Source: a virus (lineage: Duplodnaviria; Heunggongvirae; Uroviricota; Caudoviricetes). Taken from it: a stretch of 37,554 bases of DNA. The stretch is taken from IMG/VR virus record IMGVR_UViG_2695420600_000017; one strand, given 5' to 3'. Within the stretch, counting starts at the first letter, position 1. Each line of letters opens with the position of its first letter. A model generated the notes under the pieces. It did not search any database. It saw nothing but the letters and a program-made list of their open reading frames with translations, and was not told the DNA's origin. This document shows positions 1 to 37,321 of this stretch, one piece after another. A program made the translations under genes and the position numbers.

Positions 1-330
1 GAACGTCTGGTTCAGCAGATTTGGCGCAACTGGCAGATTGTGGTTCGAGTTCGTAGTCGCTCTGAACTTGCGTTTCTGCTTACAGCGTAGCCTTAGCTCC
101 TTACGAAGACGTGCCAGTCGGTCACGACCAACGATGATGCCATTCTCTGCCAGCTCCGTCTGGAGCCGCCGGGTTCCATATGTTTCGCGAGTGCGGATAT
201 GTGCCACCTTAATCTCCAGTTTTAGCCGCTCATCACTTTGTTTTCTGTCTGAGGGTTCATGCTGTACCCAGTTGTAATAACCGCTCCTGGATACACCAAA
301 TACCTGACACATATAGCGCGGCGATTTTTT
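1..330 (-). mobile_element. IS3-family insertion sequence fragment (transposase OrfB-region N-terminal part, runs off window start; no orfA upstream)
   Basis: Hand translation of minus strand from ATG at 310-312 gives MCQVFGVSRSGYYNWVQHEPSDRKQSDERLKLEIKVAHIRTRETYGTRRLQTELAENGIIVGRDRLARLRKELRL..., the typical IS3-family OrfB N-terminal region before the DDE domain. An A7 run sits just upstream (about 324-331). Family-level resemblance ends near 313-330, where the prophage end repeats begin. Confidence 0.55.
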
Positions 331-439: not shown

Positions 440-1180
440 TCATTCACTCTCTTTCAAACCAGTTTTAACTGTTTGTGGTTTTGGGTAAGGCTGGACTTTG
501 AATAGCTTTGTGTTAAGGCGTTTTCTGGCTCTCTTGTCCAGAAACCGGATGTAACGAAACTGACGGAATTTATGAACACTGGCTCTGTCGATATTAGCCC
601 GCAGATGTTCACCTCGCTGTCCTCCTCGTTTGATTGCATTCTTGCAAATCTCGTGATACCACTCGCCATCAAGTTCATAGAATGTTGTTTCATGACTGCC
701 TACATAATCAAAATTGCTTGCCTGGTACACGACACCAAGACAGCCACAACGCTCATCTGCAAACGACTGAACCCACTGCACCTGCGGATAAAGTTGTCTG
801 ATTAGTTTGAGCGCGTAACTGATTGCCCTTGATTCGGAGTTTCTCGGCATACAGTCATGCAGCCATAACCGGTTAAGCTCCATATATTCGCGGTTCTGCG
901 TGCCAGTTACGACGCGTGCACCATTGTTTGGATTAAGGGCATAACCCCATTGCATTACGCCAACCAGCTCCCGTTCTGAAAATATGCCCAGATGAAGGTA
1001 GGAATTATTTACGAAACGATGGCTGTAATGTTTATTGACGACGACCAGCCGGGCCAGCCAGCAACTTATTGTCTCAACCCGTAACTCACGGGAGCCATAA
1101 CCGACGATATTGTCGTTATAGTGAATAAGTTCAGGCGTGCTGATGATACGGGATGTAACTTGCTTTCTGTTCCCCACGAC
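440..1180 (-). CDS. mom: Mom-like DNA modification protein; start uncertain (GTG at 1178-1180 chosen, ORF is open up to 1372)
   Basis: Long ORF overlapping and directly downstream of a com-like zinc-finger gene, at the extreme right end of a Mu-like prophage, as in Mu. No in-frame ATG near the com stop, so a non-ATG or internal start is inferred. Confidence 0.55.
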
Positions 1181-1331
1181 AGGATTTCCTTGTGTATGTG
1201 GGGTGCTCTGTGGCGCTCTGAGATGTGATTTGATTGAGGGTTTTACAGCGCGGACATTTGACTTCCAGATAACTGAAGCTGGCTCGTGCCAGTAGCTTGT
1301 TACAATGTCGGCACCGTATGTTTCGATACAT
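1131..1331 (-). CDS. com: Com-like zinc-finger translational activator of mom
   Basis: [34 protein letters not shown]... carries the CxxC...CxxC pattern and resembles recalled Mu Com (MKSIRCKNCNKLLFKA...RCPRCK). AGGAGG about 10 nt upstream of the ATG at 1329-1331. The track ORF begins at a TTG further upstream. Confidence 0.7.
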
Positions 1332-1470
1332 GGCCGCATAACCTCCTGCTTTGTTGTTGATATCTTTATCACTCAATCGATCGACAAAAACGATCGATTT
1401 GATTTATTTAATTGATACAACAAATAACACGAAATGTCATTAGCGAAAATTTATGAGTTTGATCACTAAT
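1332..1470 (-). promoter_or_regulatory. Putative com-mom promoter/operator region with GATC (Dam) sites
   Basis: GATC at about 1379-1382 and 1392-1395 (within TCGATCGA and CGATCG palindromes) and again at about 1461-1464, upstream of com. In Mu the mom promoter is controlled through clustered GATC sites. Promoter elements themselves not identified. Confidence 0.3.
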
Positions 1471-1587: not shown

Positions 1588-1881
1588 ATGGACAATCATG
1601 TAACGACGAGAAATCGAAAAATGATTGAAAATGCGGAAATCTATAATGATTATTTTTCCGATTATTCAGATGCCTGCAAATACAGTTCGAGTGCGGGAGA
1701 GTTCATATGCTTCAACTTTTTTATTAAATCTTATGTTTTTCCTCCACAGCAAGAAGATGGAGGTGTGCCACCTCCTGAAATCACTTTGCACCGTATAGCC
1801 TCCGTCTCAATGATGGAGCAACAGGCTAATGAGCTGTATAGCATTCTGGGAACGATTCTACAAAAGCGTGAATCGGACTAA
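1588..1881 (+). CDS. Hypothetical protein (97 aa), plus-strand gene in AT-rich accessory region
   Basis: ORF preceded by GAGG 8-10 nt upstream of the ATG and about 200 bp of AT-rich sequence; no recognisable motif. Confidence 0.35.
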   Translation: MDNHVTTRNRKMIENAEIYNDYFSDYSDACKYSSSAGEFICFNFFIKSYVFPPQQEDGGVPPPEITLHRIASVSMMEQQANELYSILGTILQKRESD

Positions 1882-2048
1882 TGATACCGGTTCATTTGCC
1901 TGCCCGGATGGGGAAGCAGGATTGACTGCTCCATAAGCAGCTATATTTCTGAATACGAAATACTATCCAGCGATTACATATGGCTGGATAGCGGCAAAGA
2001 TGTTTTCATTAGTGTCAAACCGGCAGAGGACACCACCGGTTTGTATTG

Positions 2049-2303
2049 TTACATCATGGTACTGTCAGTTCCGGGCTGAGCCGGGTCTGGTTGCTCTGGC
2101 TGCGCGTCGGTTTTCGGCTCATTATCAGCATCACTGGCCGCAACTGCTGGCCCAATAAGTTTTGCCAGCACTTCATCAACGTAAGTGTCGATTTGTGCCT
2201 CAAAATCCTTGCGGACCTGCGCTTTCAGTAATTTATTTACTTCACCGGAATACAGTGCCTGTTTTACCAGGACTTCAGTGACGGTGCCTTTAATCTCTGG
2301 CAT
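2049..2303 (-). CDS. Hypothetical protein (84 aa), helical N-terminus with acidic Pro/Gln-rich tail
   Basis: Strong SD (AAGGAGG) 7 nt upstream of the ATG; an inverted repeat AAACCGG...CCGGTTT at about 2027-2052 overlaps the stop region. Confidence 0.5.
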   Translation of the reverse strand: MPEIKGTVTEVLVKQALYSGEVNKLLKAQVRKDFEAQIDTYVDEVLAKLIGPAVAASDADNEPKTDAQPEQPDPAQPGTDSTMM

Positions 2304-2338
2304 GTATATCCTCCTTATGTGGGAATACAGCCCTGCAA

Positions 2339-2521
2339 TCAGGGCTGGGTCGGGTCTTTTGGGAGCGGAGTTGCCTGCGCTGTTTTACTGAGCTTTTCAG
2401 CTGCTGCGTCATCAATTTTGCGGCGAACATAATTTCTGATGGCCTTATAACCACCGCTCACCAGATATAACGCACTGACCACAGTGCAGAAATAAAGCAG
2501 CATCGTATGAACAAATGTCAT
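2339..2521 (-). CDS. Small membrane protein (60 aa, one predicted TM helix)
   Basis: N-terminal hydrophobic stretch LLYFCTVVSALYLVSGG followed by a basic/charged tail; lies 35 bp upstream of the 84-aa gene on the same strand. Confidence 0.4.
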   Translation of the reverse strand: MTFVHTMLLYFCTVVSALYLVSGGYKAIRNYVRRKIDDAAAEKLSKTAQATPLPKDPTQP

Positions 2522-2686
2522 ATAACCTTACCTTTGATATTGACTACAGAAACAGTTTTCAGCTAAAAAGTAACCGCGTACATAATGGTCTTCTTTGTCA
2601 GAGGTTGTAGCTTTCCTTAATGGGTTTGGAATATCACCCGCCAGTCAACAAATGGCTCTTTGACCGGCGGGATTTTTTTATCCTGC

Positions 2687-4741
2687 TTACGCGTTATTCA
2701 CTTCCACCACGATACTGTCAATCAGTACCGGGTAAGTCGCATTTTTAGTGATATCGGTCACGCGCAACTTGTCTGCCGTAAACGTGCCGACCGGAGACTG
2801 CGACAGCATGAATGGTGTCCCGTCCTTACCATCAATGACCGGCGTCACCTCAATACTGTTGTTACCGGCAAAACGGAAGCCCAGCGTATGCCATTCGTTA
2901 TTAAATGCGCCGAATGACCCCAGCTTCGTGTTCTGCGCCGTGTTTCCTTTGTGATACATCACGTTAAGGTCTGTGGCATCGCTCTGTACGTAGAACGATG
3001 CCAGCAGGTTATGACCGGCATTTCCTTCCAGAGTAACCCCTTGCGGCAGGGCAGAAACCGGCCAGTACAGCGCCAGTGCGTACTGATTAGCCGTAAGCGC
3101 GCCATCGAGTTTAAAACGACAACTGACAAGACCACCTTTACCCAGCAGGTCCGCACCATTACCAGCATCATGCTCAAGGTACCAGGGGGCTCTTCCTGTT
3201 TCCTTGGTCAGTTTCATTGCCTTACCCCCGCTAGCTCCGGCATCATCCACGATTTGAGCCTTGCCACCTCCGGCAGCCCAACCCTGTGGTGTCAACCGTC
3301 CTTCAGACTCAGATGCCCGGTAAGCAAATAGCGTACTCATCGTCGTGGTGTCTGCGGGTGGCGTGGACGGTTTTGATGGTGTATCAGGTGACGGCTTCTC
3401 ATCCGGTGGTGTCACGGTCTGCCCGCGCATCAGTTCAGCCGTGCGCCCTGCATGGAGCATAATAGCTGAGGCCAGACGGTCTGAAATGACGCCCCTGCGT
3501 GCCCATGAGCTGAAATGGCTGTCACGCTGTGTCGAAACAAAACTGCCCTGGGTTCGGGATGCTGCACCGTAATACCCGACAGCCACAATATCCGGGTCTT
3601 CCGCCGGAGCATTCGTTGGCGTGCTCTGTCCATTCTCATCCGTCAGGAACGGTACAAAGAAAATTTTCTGTGCTTCCTTGCCTTTGTAGCCACCGTATAC
3701 TGCCTCATATTTATCGGTGCCAGCGTTTTTCCAGTAATACGTGGTATCACCGCAAATCCACGGCACCGTGGTGGCATTTCCACTCACGCACTGCGCAGCA
3801 AGCGGAGCCAGGTCAGTTCTGAACTGCTGAACCATGGCCGTGAATAAACTATTATGCTGCTGGCTTCCTGAGGCAAGGTCTGCCTCTCCCTGCATCCAGA
3901 CCACAGCCAGAAGTTTGTTTTTCGGGTTTTTCGCCAGCGCGACTTTGGTGCGGCTTACCAGGTCCTGATACAGAGGTTTACCGGCCCCCCAGCGTGAAGA
4001 ATCAGCGGAAGCACCGCTGGCCTCACTGAATGAGCCGTCGGCTCCAGTGGTGAATGCTGACCCGCCACGACAACAGGGCACCAGAAGTATCCCCGCATTC
4101 TGTGGGATATAGGGAAGCAGTTTTTTGGCAATATGCAACCCCTGACCGACAGTCCCGTACTGGCCTTTTGCCAGATCAGCTTTCGGGTGGTTTATCCCGC
4201 TCATATCCTGAACATCATGCAGGCAGTGGTCTGCCGGAATGATGTCGTTGTATGTACACGACGTACCGTTGGGCGTTACCGTACTGCGGCGTGCCAGTTG
4301 CTTAATGCGTGGGTCCGGGCGGTCAAACGAATCCGGTAACGGCAGCCCCTCGCCGTAGGCCATGCCATTTGACTGACCCGCGAGAATGACAACAAAGTAA
4401 TATTCCGGCTCTGAACTGCTGCCATTCGTGCTACCGGAAGGCCCGGCGTTATCCGGTGCATTCCAGTCGGAGGGCGTGAGCGTTCCGGCCACGTCAGATG
4501 TGATTGGAATGATGCCAGTCACGCCTGAACTGGTGATTTCTGCACTGGGATTACCGGATACCGGCATTACCCATAATGGCTCTTTCGTGCTGAAGCGGAT
4601 CACGCAGTCTGCGAAGGTGATCCCCCCTTTATTACCCGAAGGGCGGAAAGGGCTTTCAATAAATGCCACCGTGCCACCGGCAACCTTGACTGAAAACTCT
4701 CCGGGCATGGCGGAGAGCATTTTCCACTTGGAGTCTGACAT
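2687..4741 (-). CDS. Prophage sialate O-acetylesterase, NanS-p-like (SGNH/SASA esterase domain with N- and C-terminal accessory domains)
   Basis: 684-aa ORF with VVILAGQSNGMAYGEG (GQSN catalytic-serine block) and VVWMQGEAD (QGE(S/A)D block), characteristic of sialate 9-O-acetylesterases. Sits just beyond the tail-fibre genes, as nanS-p genes do in E. coli prophages. Family assignment is from motifs, not a search. Confidence 0.7.
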   Translation of the reverse strand: MSDSKWKMLSAMPGEFSVKVAGGTVAFIESPFRPSGNKGGITFADCVIRFSTKEPLWVMPVSGNPSAEITSSGVTGIIPITSDVAGTLTPSDWNAPDNAGPSGSTNGSSSEPEYYFVVILAGQSNGMAYGEGLPLPDSFDRPDPRIKQLARRSTVTPNGTSCTYNDIIPADHCLHDVQDMSGINHPKADLAKGQYGTVGQGLHIAKKLLPYIPQNAGILLVPCCRGGSAFTTGADGSFSEASGASADSSRWGAGKPLYQDLVSRTKVALAKNPKNKLLAVVWMQGEADLASGSQQHNSLFTAMVQQFRTDLAPLAAQCVSGNATTVPWICGDTTYYWKNAGTDKYEAVYGGYKGKEAQKIFFVPFLTDENGQSTPTNAPAEDPDIVAVGYYGAASRTQGSFVSTQRDSHFSSWARRGVISDRLASAIMLHAGRTAELMRGQTVTPPDEKPSPDTPSKPSTPPADTTTMSTLFAYRASESEGRLTPQGWAAGGGKAQIVDDAGASGGKAMKLTKETGRAPWYLEHDAGNGADLLGKGGLVSCRFKLDGALTANQYALALYWPVSALPQGVTLEGNAGHNLLASFYVQSDATDLNVMYHKGNTAQNTKLGSFGAFNNEWHTLGFRFAGNNSIEVTPVIDGKDGTPFMLSQSPVGTFTADKLRVTDITKNATYPVLIDSIVVEVNNA

Positions 4742-5045
4742 CGTCTTTTCTGCCTGTTTCTGAATTAAACAGAGTCAGAATAACAACCGCTGATAAATAT
4801 GTGTTTTGCGGAAATTCAAAAAAAGCATCACGGTACTTTTTGTGACGGAGCCGGTTAGGCAGGAACATAACGACAAAGGATGGACAGGCCAATACGATAA
4901 CCGCATATTACCGGCTTATAATTGATTTAACGATTCATGACGCTGCGGTCAGCATCTGAAAATATGCGTTATTTCAGAAACCCCTTGCCTGTATATGGCG
5001 ATATTATTATTCCTGTTTTTATCATTGATTTACATGGTGATGTTT

Positions 5046-9190: not shown

Positions 9191-10304
9191 AGCTGATCCC
9201 CTGTTTTTTCATCTGCTGGCGAATAAAGGCATCAACATCGTCACCGGAACCACCCCGGCCCTTACTGTCCGGCTCTGCCGGAACGATAAAGCCGTCACGC
9301 GGTGCCAGTACCAGCCGGGTGACTTCCCCGTTATGTTCATCAAGTAAAAACTCTACCTGACAGACCAGCAGTTCAGTCTGTTCTATACCGAAACGCAGGG
9401 CTGAAACACCGGTCAGCAGATTGACATCCCATAACCGGCCATCATCCCGGAACCAGCCACGCACGGTGGCAGAAAACCGTTCTGAACGGGCAATCGCACG
9501 GCGCATTTCACGCAGGGCACGCTGCCGTGCACCGGTGGTGTCTGTCTGTTGATCGGCGAGGATGATTTTCGGCCGGTAGCGGCCGATCTGCTCATCACTG
9601 ATGACGCCCACAGGTGCTGCCAGACGGGCGGCGGATTCGCTGTCTCCCCGTTTGCCACCACCGCGCCCGTGTCCCCGGACACGGTATTCGCTGTATCGTC
9701 CTCGCCAGTCCGTGTTGTAATCGGCATCAAGCAGGTTATCTCCCAGCACCAGTCTGTCCGTCTGCTGGCTTCCTGCCTGGGTGAACACCAGATCGCCGTC
9801 AGCATTACTGGTCACCAGCACCCCGCGATGCCGGGCAGCACGGGTCAGCGCATCCGCCACGGTTTCTGAGTTTTCCAGCGTAAAAGAGCTGAAGGGGCGT
9901 GCAGCCGTGTCGTCGTTAACCTGCCAGCGCACGGCTATCCCGAAGGGCGCACATAAATCTGCGGCAATCTGTGCCAGCGTCCGGTTGCGCCACTGGCTGC
10001 CGGGATGGATGGCGGCACAGTCCACCAGGTCGCCGGTTTTATCCCGACCGCTGATGCTGATCTGATGACGGGTTGCACTGATCCGCTGACTGACCTGATC
10101 CAGCCAGCCACTGATGACCGTCTGCCCGTTAATTCTGAGCGTCAGGGACTGACCGGTTCGCAGGGCTGAGGGGATGCGCTCACCGGGCAGCATCAGCCCC
10201 AGTTCAAACGACCCGGCCAGATGCTCCAGCGAGCGACGGACGCTGACCGTCAGCCAGCCGGAAAAAATACTGCCACCGATATACAGTTCAATCCTGCTGC
10301 TCAC
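9180..10304 (-). CDS. Baseplate hub/tail protein (Mu gp44/P-like)
   Basis: 374 aa; position and size as Mu gp44. Confidence 0.75.
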   Translation of the reverse strand: MSSRIELYIGGSIFSGWLTVSVRRSLEHLAGSFELGLMLPGERIPSALRTGQSLTLRINGQTVISGWLDQVSQRISATRHQISISGRDKTGDLVDCAAIHPGSQWRNRTLAQIAADLCAPFGIAVRWQVNDDTAARPFSSFTLENSETVADALTRAARHRGVLVTSNADGDLVFTQAGSQQTDRLVLGDNLLDADYNTDWRGRYSEYRVRGHGRGGGKRGDSESAARLAAPVGVISDEQIGRYRPKIILADQQTDTTGARQRALREMRRAIARSERFSATVRGWFRDDGRLWDVNLLTGVSALRFGIEQTELLVCQVEFLLDEHNGEVTRLVLAPRDGFIVPAEPDSKGRGGSGDDVDAFIRQQMKKQGISFDE

Positions 10305-19914: not shown

Positions 19915-20091
19915 TCCGGCAGCATAAGCCGGTGTTTTTCGGGGCCGGTTTTGCGGGACTTCAGAAAGTGCTGACAGGGGAAAAATGAGAAAGGCGCTTC
20001 ACGCAGATTTTAAAGCCCGTTAAATACAGGTTAGAAAATCACGACACGCGCCTGAAGAGGGTAAGGCAATGCGTTTGTATACCTTAAACCA

Positions 20092-20686: not shown

Positions 20687-22018
20687 TTAATCAATTTGTC
20701 CTTCCAGCACCTCAAGCATTCCGCCCCGGATATCCGATTTCAGCTTATCCATATTGATAACCCGATAAGCATTCACAATCACATCCAGTTTGTCGGGCTG
20801 ACGTTTCAGACTGTACGGTGCATTAACGGCAATCTGCACACTGCCATCCTTATTTTCCACGATATACATCAGATTTTTGTGCCGTTTGTCCCACAGCACC
20901 GCTTTTGGCTTTGCCAGCATTGCCGGTAAGCGCCCGAAGTCCTCTGGCATCAGGGCGATGCCGTCATTCTGATGTTTCACACTGTCTGCATGGAGCACAT
21001 TTTTACCGCTCATCGCCAGCAGGCGGGCCGGTGGCGTTCCCGTCCGGCTTTCCACTGCCTGCGCAATGCTTTCAGTCATAAAGCCCAGCGTGCGGATATC
21101 GTTACCACCTCGCCGGGTCTGCATGATGTTTTTTGCCCAGATGCGGAACGCCAGCTGCCGCTCCGGGCTGTTGTTCATCTCCTGAACCACCATTTCCCGT
21201 AACGCCGGGCTTTTCACCTCGATCAGTTTGCGGATCAGCGCCTGGTCTGTGCCGAACGCTGCCGAGCCGGGGTTATATGACCAGCCCACATCCGGTGTCA
21301 TGGTTCTGGTGCCATCTGAATATGTGGTCACCGGCATTTCTCTGACTTCTCCGGTCTGTTTATCCACGCCAGCCTCAACATTGCGGGTGGAGAGATGATC
21401 CTCACCGGATGAAACGGATAACCCCATTGCATCCAGACGAGCCTGAGACAATGGCCGCACACGGCAGCGGCAGTTCCAGCCATTAGGTGGGTAGTGTGTT
21501 TTCCAGAACGGATCGTCATAGCGGAATACCAGACCGTTAAGGGCGGAATGCGACGGGCGGGTACGGCTGTCCATGACCGCCACATACTGCCAGAACGGAT
21601 GCGTGTCCGTGTTGTTCATCATCTGCGTGTAACGCCCGGCATTGTAAGCCACCCGGGTGTTCACGTTGTAAATCAGCGCCAGACGACGGGGACTGCCCAG
21701 TTGCACTTCTTCCGCGTTACCGTCGCTGTCCACCACAATCTGCTTTCCCCACCATCCCAGCTTTTGCAGGCGTGGCGTCAGCGTGCGGATAAATGCTTTC
21801 TGTGAAATTCCCTCATCAATGGCCCGCTGCACTTCGGCCTGTAACGTGGTCACCACATCCAGGCGTGCCGCTTTTGCTGCCGTGAATGAGCGGGCATGAA
21901 CATCCGCGGCTGTTTCGAACCAGTTCCAGCTGATATGCGCCCCTTTGACACGGAAGTATGCTACCGCCTCTTTTGAGGGAAGCGTGGCGGCATAACCTAA
22001 ATCAATCCCCTGTGTCAT
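20687..22018 (-). CDS. Head morphogenesis protein (Mu F/gp30-like)
   Basis: 443 aa directly after the portal gene. Confidence 0.8.
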   Translation of the reverse strand: MTQGIDLGYAATLPSKEAVAYFRVKGAHISWNWFETAADVHARSFTAAKAARLDVVTTLQAEVQRAIDEGISQKAFIRTLTPRLQKLGWWGKQIVVDSDGNAEEVQLGSPRRLALIYNVNTRVAYNAGRYTQMMNNTDTHPFWQYVAVMDSRTRPSHSALNGLVFRYDDPFWKTHYPPNGWNCRCRVRPLSQARLDAMGLSVSSGEDHLSTRNVEAGVDKQTGEVREMPVTTYSDGTRTMTPDVGWSYNPGSAAFGTDQALIRKLIEVKSPALREMVVQEMNNSPERQLAFRIWAKNIMQTRRGGNDIRTLGFMTESIAQAVESRTGTPPARLLAMSGKNVLHADSVKHQNDGIALMPEDFGRLPAMLAKPKAVLWDKRHKNLMYIVENKDGSVQIAVNAPYSLKRQPDKLDVIVNAYRVINMDKLKSDIRGGMLEVLEGQID

Positions 22019-28076: not shown

Positions 28077-28147
28077 TGTTACGCTGTCTCATGGTGTTCT
28101 CTGAGTCAGCGTAACCGTGGGAAAAAGTGGGCAGGATTTGCGGAATA

Positions 28148-28570
28148 TCAGAAAAGCCGTGGCTGCGTGCGTTCCTGATGCAGGCGACGCTGGTTGCGGA
28201 TAACGGAGTAAATCTGCGTCTCTGACATCTGGTAGTGGCGGCGCAGGGTTTCAATTTTTTCGCCCTGGCTCCAGCGGGAAAAAATTTCATTATTGCGCAG
28301 TTCGGTGAAAAGGGATTCACCGACCGGGAGATAATAACCACGCCCGCCCATGTACCCGGCCTGTGCGGCTGCAACCTTACGGGCAAGCATTCCCGCCTGA
28401 GCAGGTTCAATCCCCTGACGGTGCAGTTCAGCACTGATCACATCAACCAGGTCCCGCAGCGTGCCGGGCCAGTTCTTTTTCAGCTCATCATCAGGAATAT
28501 CATCCAGACGGTCAATCAGCGCGTGCAGCTGTTCGCTGTCACCAAACATGCTCATCTGTGTTTCAGCCAT
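28148..28570 (-). CDS. mor: Mor/C-family transcriptional activator (positional Mor; the only member of the family in the window)
   Basis: 140 aa directly downstream of gemA; MFGDSEQLHALIDRL N-terminus and C-terminal HTH (ETLRRHYQMSETQIYSVIRNQRRL) resemble recalled Mu Mor. Confidence 0.7.
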   Translation of the reverse strand: MAETQMSMFGDSEQLHALIDRLDDIPDDELKKNWPGTLRDLVDVISAELHRQGIEPAQAGMLARKVAAAQAGYMGGRGYYLPVGESLFTELRNNEIFSRWSQGEKIETLRRHYQMSETQIYSVIRNQRRLHQERTQPRLF

Positions 28571-35233: not shown

Positions 35234-37321
35234 TCAGGCCAGCGGATCACTTTCTTTTAATTTCGCTTCGAGCAGTTGCAATCCCCGCTGGAAATTACGC
35301 TCGTATTCTTCATCAGGTTCATCGTCAGCGACCGGTTGCTGAACGGTCACCGTATTACCCACAGGGCGGTATATGTTTTCCAGCCAGGGCTCCTGCGGCT
35401 TGTGCTCCAGCACGTTGACAACCTCATCCTCGGCATCACGGATTTTTTCCTCTGCGCGTTTACGCATGCCTTTAAGGCGCTGCTGCTGTTTGTAGTATTC
35501 CGCGCTGACAGGGAAGGCTTCGCGTTTATTGCCGTCCCATACCGCCTCGCAAATCACGCTGCCATCCGGGCGGCGCACGGTAATTCGTTCGGCATCATGA
35601 ATGTCATAGCTGATAAGTACCTTACGGCCATGCTCGTCACGCAGCTCGGGCGCGTAGTAAATATTATTCAGCCAGCGTATTTCACAGCGTCTTACAGGGC
35701 GCTCCACCATCGGCCGGAACATATCCCGCAGTTCAACATCGGACAGCCATTCAATTTCCGTGTCCTCTTCCGCCAGGCGTTTTTTTCTGAACTCCGCCGG
35801 GCTGTAATGTTTACCGTTCGGCTTCATGGGTAATTCATCGTGCGGCCGGTTGTTGTACCACTCAACACCGTCACGAATGGCATCAATCAGTTCAGACCAG
35901 GACGGTAAATCACGCATCGCTGACTGCTGCCGGGCGTTCAGCCGTTTGCCCTGTTGCAGGGCACTGAATGCCGAGCGTAAATCGCGGTTGGTTTTACGTA
36001 ACGTCTCGCGATCTGCTCCTTTCCCGAAATAGGTGCGGTATTTACGGGCTATGCGCATCGGTAATGTGCGGTTAAGCCGTTCGATAATGCCCCGTCCCTG
36101 CGGATTACCGGCAATCCCTGTCGGGTGATTAATCCCCAGTCGTGGCAGTATCCCCACAATCTCCTTATCCAGGACGTCGGCGGTTTCCCCGGAGCCATTA
36201 TCCGAGTAATACAGAAACGGTTTGCCATGATGGCGAATACCGTGCTGTATGGCACCGGCTACGGCGAAAACATTTTCAGCCAGGTCAAGGCTCCAGCCCA
36301 CCACAAAGCGCGTGCCACCGTCGATAACAAAGGTCACTTCCGGTGCGAATGGCCGCCCGTGAACCGGGTGCGCGCATTTCAGCTTCATGCCGTGACCGTC
36401 ACCAATCCAGACATAATTCACCGGCATTTTTGACCAGTCGCGGCGCGTGAATCCCTCAAGCTGGCGGTATTCACTGCCGGTAACCCGTCCTTTTTGTTTC
36501 ACCACTTCCGGCAGTTTCTTCATTGCGCGGCGAATGGTGTCATAAGACGGCATGATATCGAGCATATAAGGCTCATCAGCGTGCCGGTGCTGCCATTCGG
36601 CAACAAAATCCTCGTAAGCCTCGGTCATTGGTCGGCCGTTTGACTGGCGATACTGCGCCAGAAATTCGGGCAACCAGTTAATATCTTCGGCTTTTATTTC
36701 CTGGCGTTTACCTGGTGCCAGCAAAAGCAGGCGTTCAGCAGCGTTCTGTGCCTTATTAAAGGCCGCAATCCAGCGTTTCAGCGTGATTTCACTCAACACG
36801 CGACTGTTTCCCTTTCTGGCGTTCGCTATCTCAACCATTGCCACAATGCGCTCATCCAGTTGCGAGTGTGACAGGCGGTCAACGATGAACCGGATAGCTT
36901 TAGCGCAGCTGAAACCGGGTTGTTGCGTGAATTTCAGCACCTCACTGACGATCGCAATGCGTGCGTCTGCCACCTGGCGCTGGTTTTCAGTCAGGGCATT
37001 GAGGCGTTCGACCATCAGTTGTGGTGATCCGCGATATGCCTCCACCGCATCAACCACGGCAGACGAGCGTCTGGCCTTTGTCACCACCGGAGCCGGTGAT
37101 TCATCGGCTTTTTGCGTCATCAGTTGCAGGGCATAACGTTCGCGTAATGCCTGCTGTGTCACTTCAGGTAAACAGTCAATGCTGTATTCAAAACCTTTAG
37201 CGCCTTTCTTGCGGCGTCTGCTGGTTTCGCTGGTTGCATACTTCCTGATTGAATAGCGAACGCCTTGCTCCGTTCCCGGCATCCCCGGTAATCCAACCAG
37301 TTCTTTGACTGAAGCAAACAT
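35234..37321 (-). CDS. A: MuA-like DDE transposase
   Basis: 695 aa between ner and B; size and position as MuA (663 aa recalled). Confidence 0.9.
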   Translation of the reverse strand: MFASVKELVGLPGMPGTEQGVRYSIRKYATSETSRRRKKGAKGFEYSIDCLPEVTQQALRERYALQLMTQKADESPAPVVTKARRSSAVVDAVEAYRGSPQLMVERLNALTENQRQVADARIAIVSEVLKFTQQPGFSCAKAIRFIVDRLSHSQLDERIVAMVEIANARKGNSRVLSEITLKRWIAAFNKAQNAAERLLLLAPGKRQEIKAEDINWLPEFLAQYRQSNGRPMTEAYEDFVAEWQHRHADEPYMLDIMPSYDTIRRAMKKLPEVVKQKGRVTGSEYRQLEGFTRRDWSKMPVNYVWIGDGHGMKLKCAHPVHGRPFAPEVTFVIDGGTRFVVGWSLDLAENVFAVAGAIQHGIRHHGKPFLYYSDNGSGETADVLDKEIVGILPRLGINHPTGIAGNPQGRGIIERLNRTLPMRIARKYRTYFGKGADRETLRKTNRDLRSAFSALQQGKRLNARQQSAMRDLPSWSELIDAIRDGVEWYNNRPHDELPMKPNGKHYSPAEFRKKRLAEEDTEIEWLSDVELRDMFRPMVERPVRRCEIRWLNNIYYAPELRDEHGRKVLISYDIHDAERITVRRPDGSVICEAVWDGNKREAFPVSAEYYKQQQRLKGMRKRAEEKIRDAEDEVVNVLEHKPQEPWLENIYRPVGNTVTVQQPVADDEPDEEYERNFQRGLQLLEAKLKESDPLA

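Follow-up and report, generated by a model that had tools for sequence, protein, structure and literature searches.

The com-mom locus of a Mu-like Escherichia coli prophage: gene assignment, junction RNA hairpins and GATC sites

Genes at the locus and prophage context

The window, by which we mean the whole stretch of 37,554 nucleotides that was analysed, is almost a whole Mu-like prophage read in reverse. According to the listing of open reading frames and a direct reading of the sequence, com and mom are both encoded on its minus strand, where they overlap by 47 nt (1131-1177). The coding features are as follows.

440-1177, minus strand: mom coding sequence, GTG start, 245 aa; matched by Pfam Mom PF25680, Mu Mom and PDB 8BV8
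1131-1331, minus strand: com coding sequence, ATG 1331 to TGA 1131, a zinc ribbon of 66 aa
1342-1347, minus strand: com ribosome-binding site AGGAGG, read directly, 10 nt before ATG 1331

Mom matched the Pfam Mom family (PF25680) with 260.2 bits (E 1.6e-77; profile positions 1-202 of 202), and Com matched Zn_ribbon_Com (PF10122) with 47.4 bits (E 1.3e-12); the respective Pfam cut-offs are 27.1 and 22.9 bits. An earlier note on this DNA, made from the sequence alone, had described a Com-like zinc-finger gene overlapping a long open reading frame. Matches above cut-off for both genes confirm this description, and the full-profile match shows that the long frame does belong to the Mom family. The identification as a com-mom DNA-modification module is likewise supported, with 77-78% identity between Mom and Mu Mom (NC_000929) and 44% identity between Com and Mu Com.

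The Mu Mom crystal structure (PDB 8BV8) was matched with an E-value of 2.4e-123 and PHROG 1384 with 2.8e-83; NCBIfam returned no Mom model for this protein. Alignment with Mu Mom revealed identity at W48, H58, Y59, R111, S124, D149, R151, Y159 and W181, the list of catalytic and essential residues and the Mu 241-aa numbering being those of PMC13219725. The helix-turn-helix-like insertion (about residues 175-209), needed for Mom activity, is ungapped and highly conserved relative to Mu Mom and PDB 8BV8. Com carries the zinc-ribbon pattern CxxC-N15-CxxC, with C7, C10, C26 and C29 invariant relative to Mu Com. PHROG families matched by Com are named 'translational regulator' or 'gpCom', and its PDB search gave only marginal matches, to ribosomal zinc ribbons. 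The AGGAGG of com is kept in all close relatives.

The remainder of the minus strand carries a Mu-like set of transposase, Gam, GemA, Mor/C-family activator, lysis, head, tail and baseplate genes. E. coli genomes carry the matching DNA at many different insertion sites, and in each case the match starts at window positions 308-312; LC727881 has its annotated Mu-like insertion boundary there too. This common boundary places the right end of the prophage about 128 nt beyond the mom stop, which bears out the earlier placement of com-mom at the right end. Upstream of com, between the tail-fibre/invertase region and the locus, four genes absent from Mu occupy 1588-4741. The flanking features are listed below.

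312-439, no strand assigned: right end of the prophage, following mom, where TGATACCG/TGATACT repeats occur at 331-338, 353-360 and 388-394; the repeats are probably right-end transposase-binding sites
1588 or 1621 to 1881, plus strand: divergent orphan open reading frame with no Pfam, PHROG or NCBIfam match
2049-2303, minus strand: DUF826 gene
2339-2521, minus strand: DUF1378 gene
2687-4741, minus strand: DUF6645 protein of 684 aa with a sialate O-acetylesterase (SASA) domain

Outside the prophage, the minus strand of positions 1-311 codes for an N-terminal portion of OrfB, a transposase of the IS3 family (…YNWVQHEPSDRKQSDERLKLEIKVAHIRTRETYGTRRLQTELAENGIIVGRDRLARLRKEL…), so that the Mu-like prophage sits inside an insertion sequence. 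In the closely related prophage L098, the NCBI pipeline annotates a 'tRNA-OTHER' at 21217-21296. ARAGORN found no tRNA or tmRNA in the whole window.

The com-mom region was present in 233 of 5426 complete E. coli genomes. RefSeq already annotates identical proteins, Mom as WP_000528246.1 (245 aa) and Com as the 'Com family' protein WP_014334043.1, while in several genomes the PGAP label for mom is 'hypothetical protein'.

The mom start codon and the RNA hairpins of the junction

The com-mom junction contains the following elements.

1175-1177, minus strand: mom start codon GTG, aligned with the GUG of Mu
1187-1191, minus strand: mom ribosome-binding site AAGGA, 9 nt before the GTG, in the hairpin loop and inner stem
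1172-1203, minus strand: translation-inhibition hairpin, in which CCCCAC (1203-1198) pairs with GUGGGG (1177-1172)
1203-1216, minus strand: predicted Com-binding hairpin GCGC[CACAGA]GCAC, directly 5' of the inhibition hairpin

The mom frame is open over 310 codons, from 1372 to 440, and crosses com in another frame. Between ATG 1339 and ATG 955 its only ATG, GTG or TTG codon is GTG 1177, so the lack of an in-frame ATG near the com stop, pointed out in the earlier note, is confirmed for this whole interval. At the position of the GTG, VVGNRKQ in the window aligns with IVGKEKK in Mu. The crystallised Mu Mom (8BV8) begins at the same position, and the PGAP coding sequence WP_000528246.1 uses the same mom start, with the same coordinates, in identical E. 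coli prophages. Every relative that carries an intact com also keeps the GTG in the mom frame, and the sole exception among com-bearing junctions is the locus L005, which has lost one G of the GUGGGG run. In Mu, the Mom start is a GUG inside the stem of the translation-inhibition structure (PMC6483171), and the protein tolerates the loss of the 10 residues between the upstream ATG and this GUG (PMC13219725). The mom start in the window is thus GTG 1177, giving a protein of 245 aa. The earlier note had called the start unusual, a description that does not hold, since GTG 1177 is the family-typical GUG aligned with the known Mu start. Its conclusion that mom must use a non-ATG or a distant start was right in the first part only, as the upstream stops found in relatives speak against a distant one.

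A long, N-terminally extended Mom translated from ATG 1339 or GTG 1372 is extremely improbable. The frame is indeed open from 1372 to 440 with an ATG available at 1339, but that ATG sits 2 nt from the AGGAGG, and the Pfam Mom profile is covered by residues 96-298 of the 310-codon frame, starting only at residue 96. Nor is the extension conserved: a stop in the mom frame precedes the GTG by 27 codons in 97% identical O157-type prophages, with no intervening start codon, and by a single codon in two further relatives (L096 and L014). Given these upstream stops, the 310-codon frame is best regarded as an accident of this particular sequence. A start at ATG 955 would remove the segment with W48, H58 and Y59, which matter for the activity of Mu Mom (PMC13219725). 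For annotation, mom is therefore the 245-aa gene from GTG 1177, and neither the gene from the first ATG, with essential residues lost, nor the 310-codon frame. Correct annotation of mom in this prophage family is the practical value of the analysis.

Folding of the junction RNA, suggested in the earlier note, placed the GUG in the inhibition hairpin with the predicted Com hairpin adjoining, a layout kept in 20 distinct junctions of related loci. The mom GUG lies in the 3' arm of the inhibition hairpin, which comprises 6 bp and a 20-nt loop; its inner stem pairs the GG of the mom ribosome-binding site. The predicted folding energy was -11.5 kcal/mol (z -2.07), compared with -8.7 for the Mu equivalent. 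Com recognises 5'-CC(N)2-3GAG-3' in a hairpin loop (PMC6483171), and CC-ACA-GAG (1213-1206) forms the loop and closing pair of the predicted Com hairpin. C1203 belongs to both hairpins, in keeping with the notion that each helix is weakened when the other is stabilised.

For comparison, 97 loci encoding Mom relatives were gathered from species genomes and viral contigs; their junctions were extracted, and 20 distinct ones were aligned. When both helices were imposed on the 20 junctions, 97.2% of cells were standard pairs, versus 23-62% with the partners slid by 1-3 columns. CCCAC...GUGGG was 100% paired across the 20 distinct junctions, and the sixth pair of the inhibition hairpin switched between U-A and C-G with no unpaired case; conservation of CCCAC/GUGGG could come in part from the two overlapping reading frames. 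In the Com hairpin, all four pairs (4/4) showed compensatory changes on both sides among the relatives, for example AUGC/GCAU in Mu and GCAC/GUGC in L046 and L007. Its second pair is a C.A mismatch in the window's clade, which makes the predicted hairpin weak (about -1.7 kcal/mol). A natural variant, L022, has U-A at this pair and a predicted energy of -4.3 kcal/mol. The com-mom leader matched no family in Rfam. The comparison across about 97 loci thus adds covariation support for the two-hairpin Com switch, for which Rfam has no family.

A natural switch mutant was observed in E. coli JE86-ST05 (locus L005, NZ_AP022815). One G of the GUGGGG run, equivalent to window positions 1172-1177, is deleted there, com is fused in frame to mom, and the GUG is out of the mom frame. 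The NCBI pipeline annotates com of this strain as frameshifted.

GATC sites and the promoter region

The following features lie upstream of com or concern the late promoters of the phage.

1332-1426, minus strand: regulatory block conserved among the prophage clade; O157-type homology stops at about 1426
1375-1399, no strand assigned: two conserved Dam sites (1379-1382 and 1392-1395) within the inverted repeat AATCGATCG-N7-CGATCGATT
1461-1464, no strand assigned: third GATC, absent from 95-97% identical O157-type regions and from most of 16 clade variants
1380-1416, minus strand: best match to the OxyR consensus (13 of the 20 defined positions of a 37-bp consensus), a similarity only
28108-28143 and 19921-19956, minus strand: probable late-promoter signatures upstream of the lysozyme and head-protease genes
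About 4775-4811, minus strand: near-variant CCGCAAAACA-N18-TTATTCT preceding the DUF6645 gene

The earlier note had seen a cluster of GATC sites upstream of com as an echo of the methylation-sensitive mom promoter of Mu. The sites are present: those at 1379, 1392 and 1461 are the only GATC in the first 4173 bases of the window, which holds 107 GATC in total against 144 expected. Their density is unremarkable, as three GATC per 100 bp are also reached at 10059-10097, and the count per 100 bp is therefore a useless statistic here. The third site is not conserved and is probably incidental. What stands is the pair at 1379 and 1392, conserved at a spacing of 13 bp, and with it the resemblance to Mu. 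Pairwise alignment placed this pair on Mu GATC sites II and III, with ATCAATTAAAT preceding it in both, but the pair lies nearer to com than in Mu, and two sites are conserved.

The arrangement of the pair is not due to chance. No other GATC-N9-GATC exists in the 37.5 kb, for which arithmetic from the GATC count predicts about 0.3. Both sites read CGATCG, of which the window has four, and they fall in a perfect inverted repeat of 9 bp with a 7-nt spacer (1375-1383/1391-1399). Both proximal GATC were intact in 16 of 16 clade sequence variants, while the next 13 nt were variable. In a set of 21 dissimilar regulatory regions, chosen so that no two shared more than 20% of their 8-mers, the com-proximal pair was exactly 13 bp apart in 13, and most of the others had a spacing of 18 bp. 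Across the loci compared, a GATC pair 13 bp apart marks mom loci more widely than does com, and methylation-site control seems more widespread in the Mom family than Com control.

Four IMG/VR contigs (L082, L084, L087 and L088) encode mom without com. Their mom genes begin with ATG, and three GATC lie immediately upstream, within about 60 nt.

The match at 1380-1416 was the joint top OxyR-consensus score of the whole window, and the same scan of the Mu locus put its top score on the known OxyR/GATC region. Because the region is AT-rich, the match in the window is suggestive only. OxyR reportedly represses the unmethylated mom promoter of Mu, a result attributed to Bolker and Kahmann (1989), as cited in PMC4461284.

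The com-mom promoter must lie within 1332-1426 or just upstream. A scan of the minus strand from 1300 to 2700 with the sigma-70 consensus returned no -10/-35 match. In close outgroups with the same compact layout, the -10 hexamers TATACT, TATAGT and TAGATT occur 11-13 nt after the proximal GATC and would put the two GATC near -25 and -38. The equivalent stretch in the window is GAGTGATAAAGAT, which varies among 95-97% identical prophages. If the transcript starts about 7 nt after GATAAAGAT (near 1355), the GATC pair would lie at -25/-38 here as well. As only the two proximal GATC are conserved and they lie much closer to com than in Mu, the geometry of the Mu promoter does not carry over unchanged.

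A late-promoter signature derived upstream of the phage's own lysozyme and protease genes, CCGCAAAWCC-N19-TTAYGCT, has just two copies in the window. Both lie on the late-gene strand, and chance alone would be expected to give none. Mu late promoters share the box-N19-TTAnnCT geometry with a different box sequence, according to our own count on the sequences in PMC4461284. Upstream of com, the minus strand has no copy of CCGCAAAWCC. The Mu C box (CCATAACCCC, up to 1 mismatch) matched on the wrong strand only and nowhere near com, and a direct reading of 1332-1426 found no CCATAAYCCC-like box. TTACGCT at 1578-1572 (minus strand) was considered as a far-upstream -10 and rejected; no box is found at a suitable distance from it, and its position is outside the O157-conserved block.

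Only one Mor/C-family activator gene was seen (28148-28570, minus strand); its identity is 40% with Mu C and 28% with Mor. Mu has two, and the single gene hints at a shorter regulatory cascade. As com-mom misses the late-activator box present at other late promoters, it could be uncoupled from the late-gene cascade, and in this clade and a few lineages of compact layout it could be gated only by methylation and Com. This idea, in which the GATC pair at about -25/-38 would overlap the core promoter and expression might even occur in a subpopulation of lysogens as for agn43 and opvAB, is speculative and in our judgement unlikely.

Functional reading and comparison with known systems

We consider the locus, with a probability of roughly 85%, to be the com-mom operon of an Sp18-type Mu-like E. 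coli prophage, orthologous to that of Mu and working in the same way. This reading is carried by the identity of the genes, the start codon, the RNA elements with their covariation and the conservation of the GATC pair. Com binding, control by OxyR and Dam, the enzyme chemistry and late timing would follow by homology with Mu.

Under such a mechanism, the com-mom transcript would arise from a weak promoter adjoining the two GATC sites. The unmethylated GATC pair would act as an OxyR-type site that blocks transcription, and Dam methylation would lift the block. Com would then be translated from ATG 1331 behind its strong AGGAGG. On the naked mRNA, the mom GUG at 1177 and part of its ribosome-binding site would be locked in the hairpin 1203-1172, with Com presumed to bind the small adjoining hairpin with CC-ACA-GAG (1216-1203). 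Because the Com hairpin shares one nucleotide with the inhibition hairpin, Com binding is expected to open the latter, allowing mom to be translated from the GUG. Mu Mom transfers glycine from Gly-tRNA(Gly) to the N6 of adenine in duplex DNA, and the adduct rearranges to N6-carbamoylmethyl-adenine, which confers protection from restriction (PMC13219725). By analogy, Mom of the window would be a GNAT-fold enzyme performing the same glycyl transfer and shielding phage DNA from many restriction enzymes.

Two other explanations were weighed against this operon. The GATC inverted repeat might serve as the operator of some other protein, or as an intrinsic terminator against antisense transcription from the prophage end, with no Dam/OxyR switch involved. 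Its perfect 9-bp palindrome with a 7-nt spacer, followed on the plus strand by TGATTTATTT, was flagged as terminator-like. The stem has only four G-C pairs, however, and what is kept across lineages is the GATC together with the 13-bp spacing, not the palindrome arms or a T tract: Mu has GATCggtaatacaGATC and L046 has GATCgacgtggccGATC. We therefore regard this as quite improbable. That com-mom is an inactive remnant of a decaying prophage is highly improbable. This reading could draw on the 1-nt deletion that disrupts the com/mom junction in L005 and on the 'hypothetical protein' label given to mom by PGAP in several genomes, but the window keeps both frames intact, with conserved catalytic residues and regulatory RNA, and a full Mu-like gene set is present in the prophage; in relatives, the GATC pair and the hairpins are under purifying selection. 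The orthologous, Mu-like operon is thus retained as the preferred reading. The features that had been flagged as unusual, namely the GTG start and the GATC sites, are canonical in the well-studied mom system, and the system itself is already known, identical genes being named in RefSeq.

Among E. coli prophages, Sp18 of O157:H7 Sakai and identical RefSeq prophages are 95-100% identical to the region in DNA. The O157:H7 copies (95.8% identical) correspond to the Mu-like prophage Sp18 described in PMC2669165. O157-type copies are without the third GATC, and their sequence departs from that of the window beyond about 1426, on the upstream side, as well as in the 13 nt that follow the GATC pair.

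Compared with Mu (NC_000929: com 35768-35956, mom ending at 36602), the window has the same gene order and overlap, and in both phages com-mom is a right-end module that adjoins the transposase-binding end. Both place the GUG in the 3' arm of a CCCAC/GUGGG hairpin with a CC-N3-GAG Com hairpin directly 5', and both have a GATC pair at 13-bp spacing after ATCAATTAAAT. Among the differences, conserved GATC sites number two in the window and three in Mu. The distance between the last GATC and the com ATG is 51 nt, compared with 78 in Mu, the pair lying about 30 nt closer to com. Missing from the window are about 36 nt between GATC and com, which in Mu comprise the C-activator box, a T-run and the -10. 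The upstream in-frame AUG of Mu mom is also absent, and the window has four extra genes upstream of com where Mu has gin. At the protein level, Mom of the window carries 12 C-terminal residues more than Mu Mom.

In a wider group of loci controlled by Dam and OxyR (Mu mom, agn43, opvAB and gtr), GATC lies inside an OxyR-type site, and methylation and repressor binding are mutually exclusive (PMC4856963). Judged by its sequence, the window resembles these loci in having GATC within a candidate OxyR-type site.
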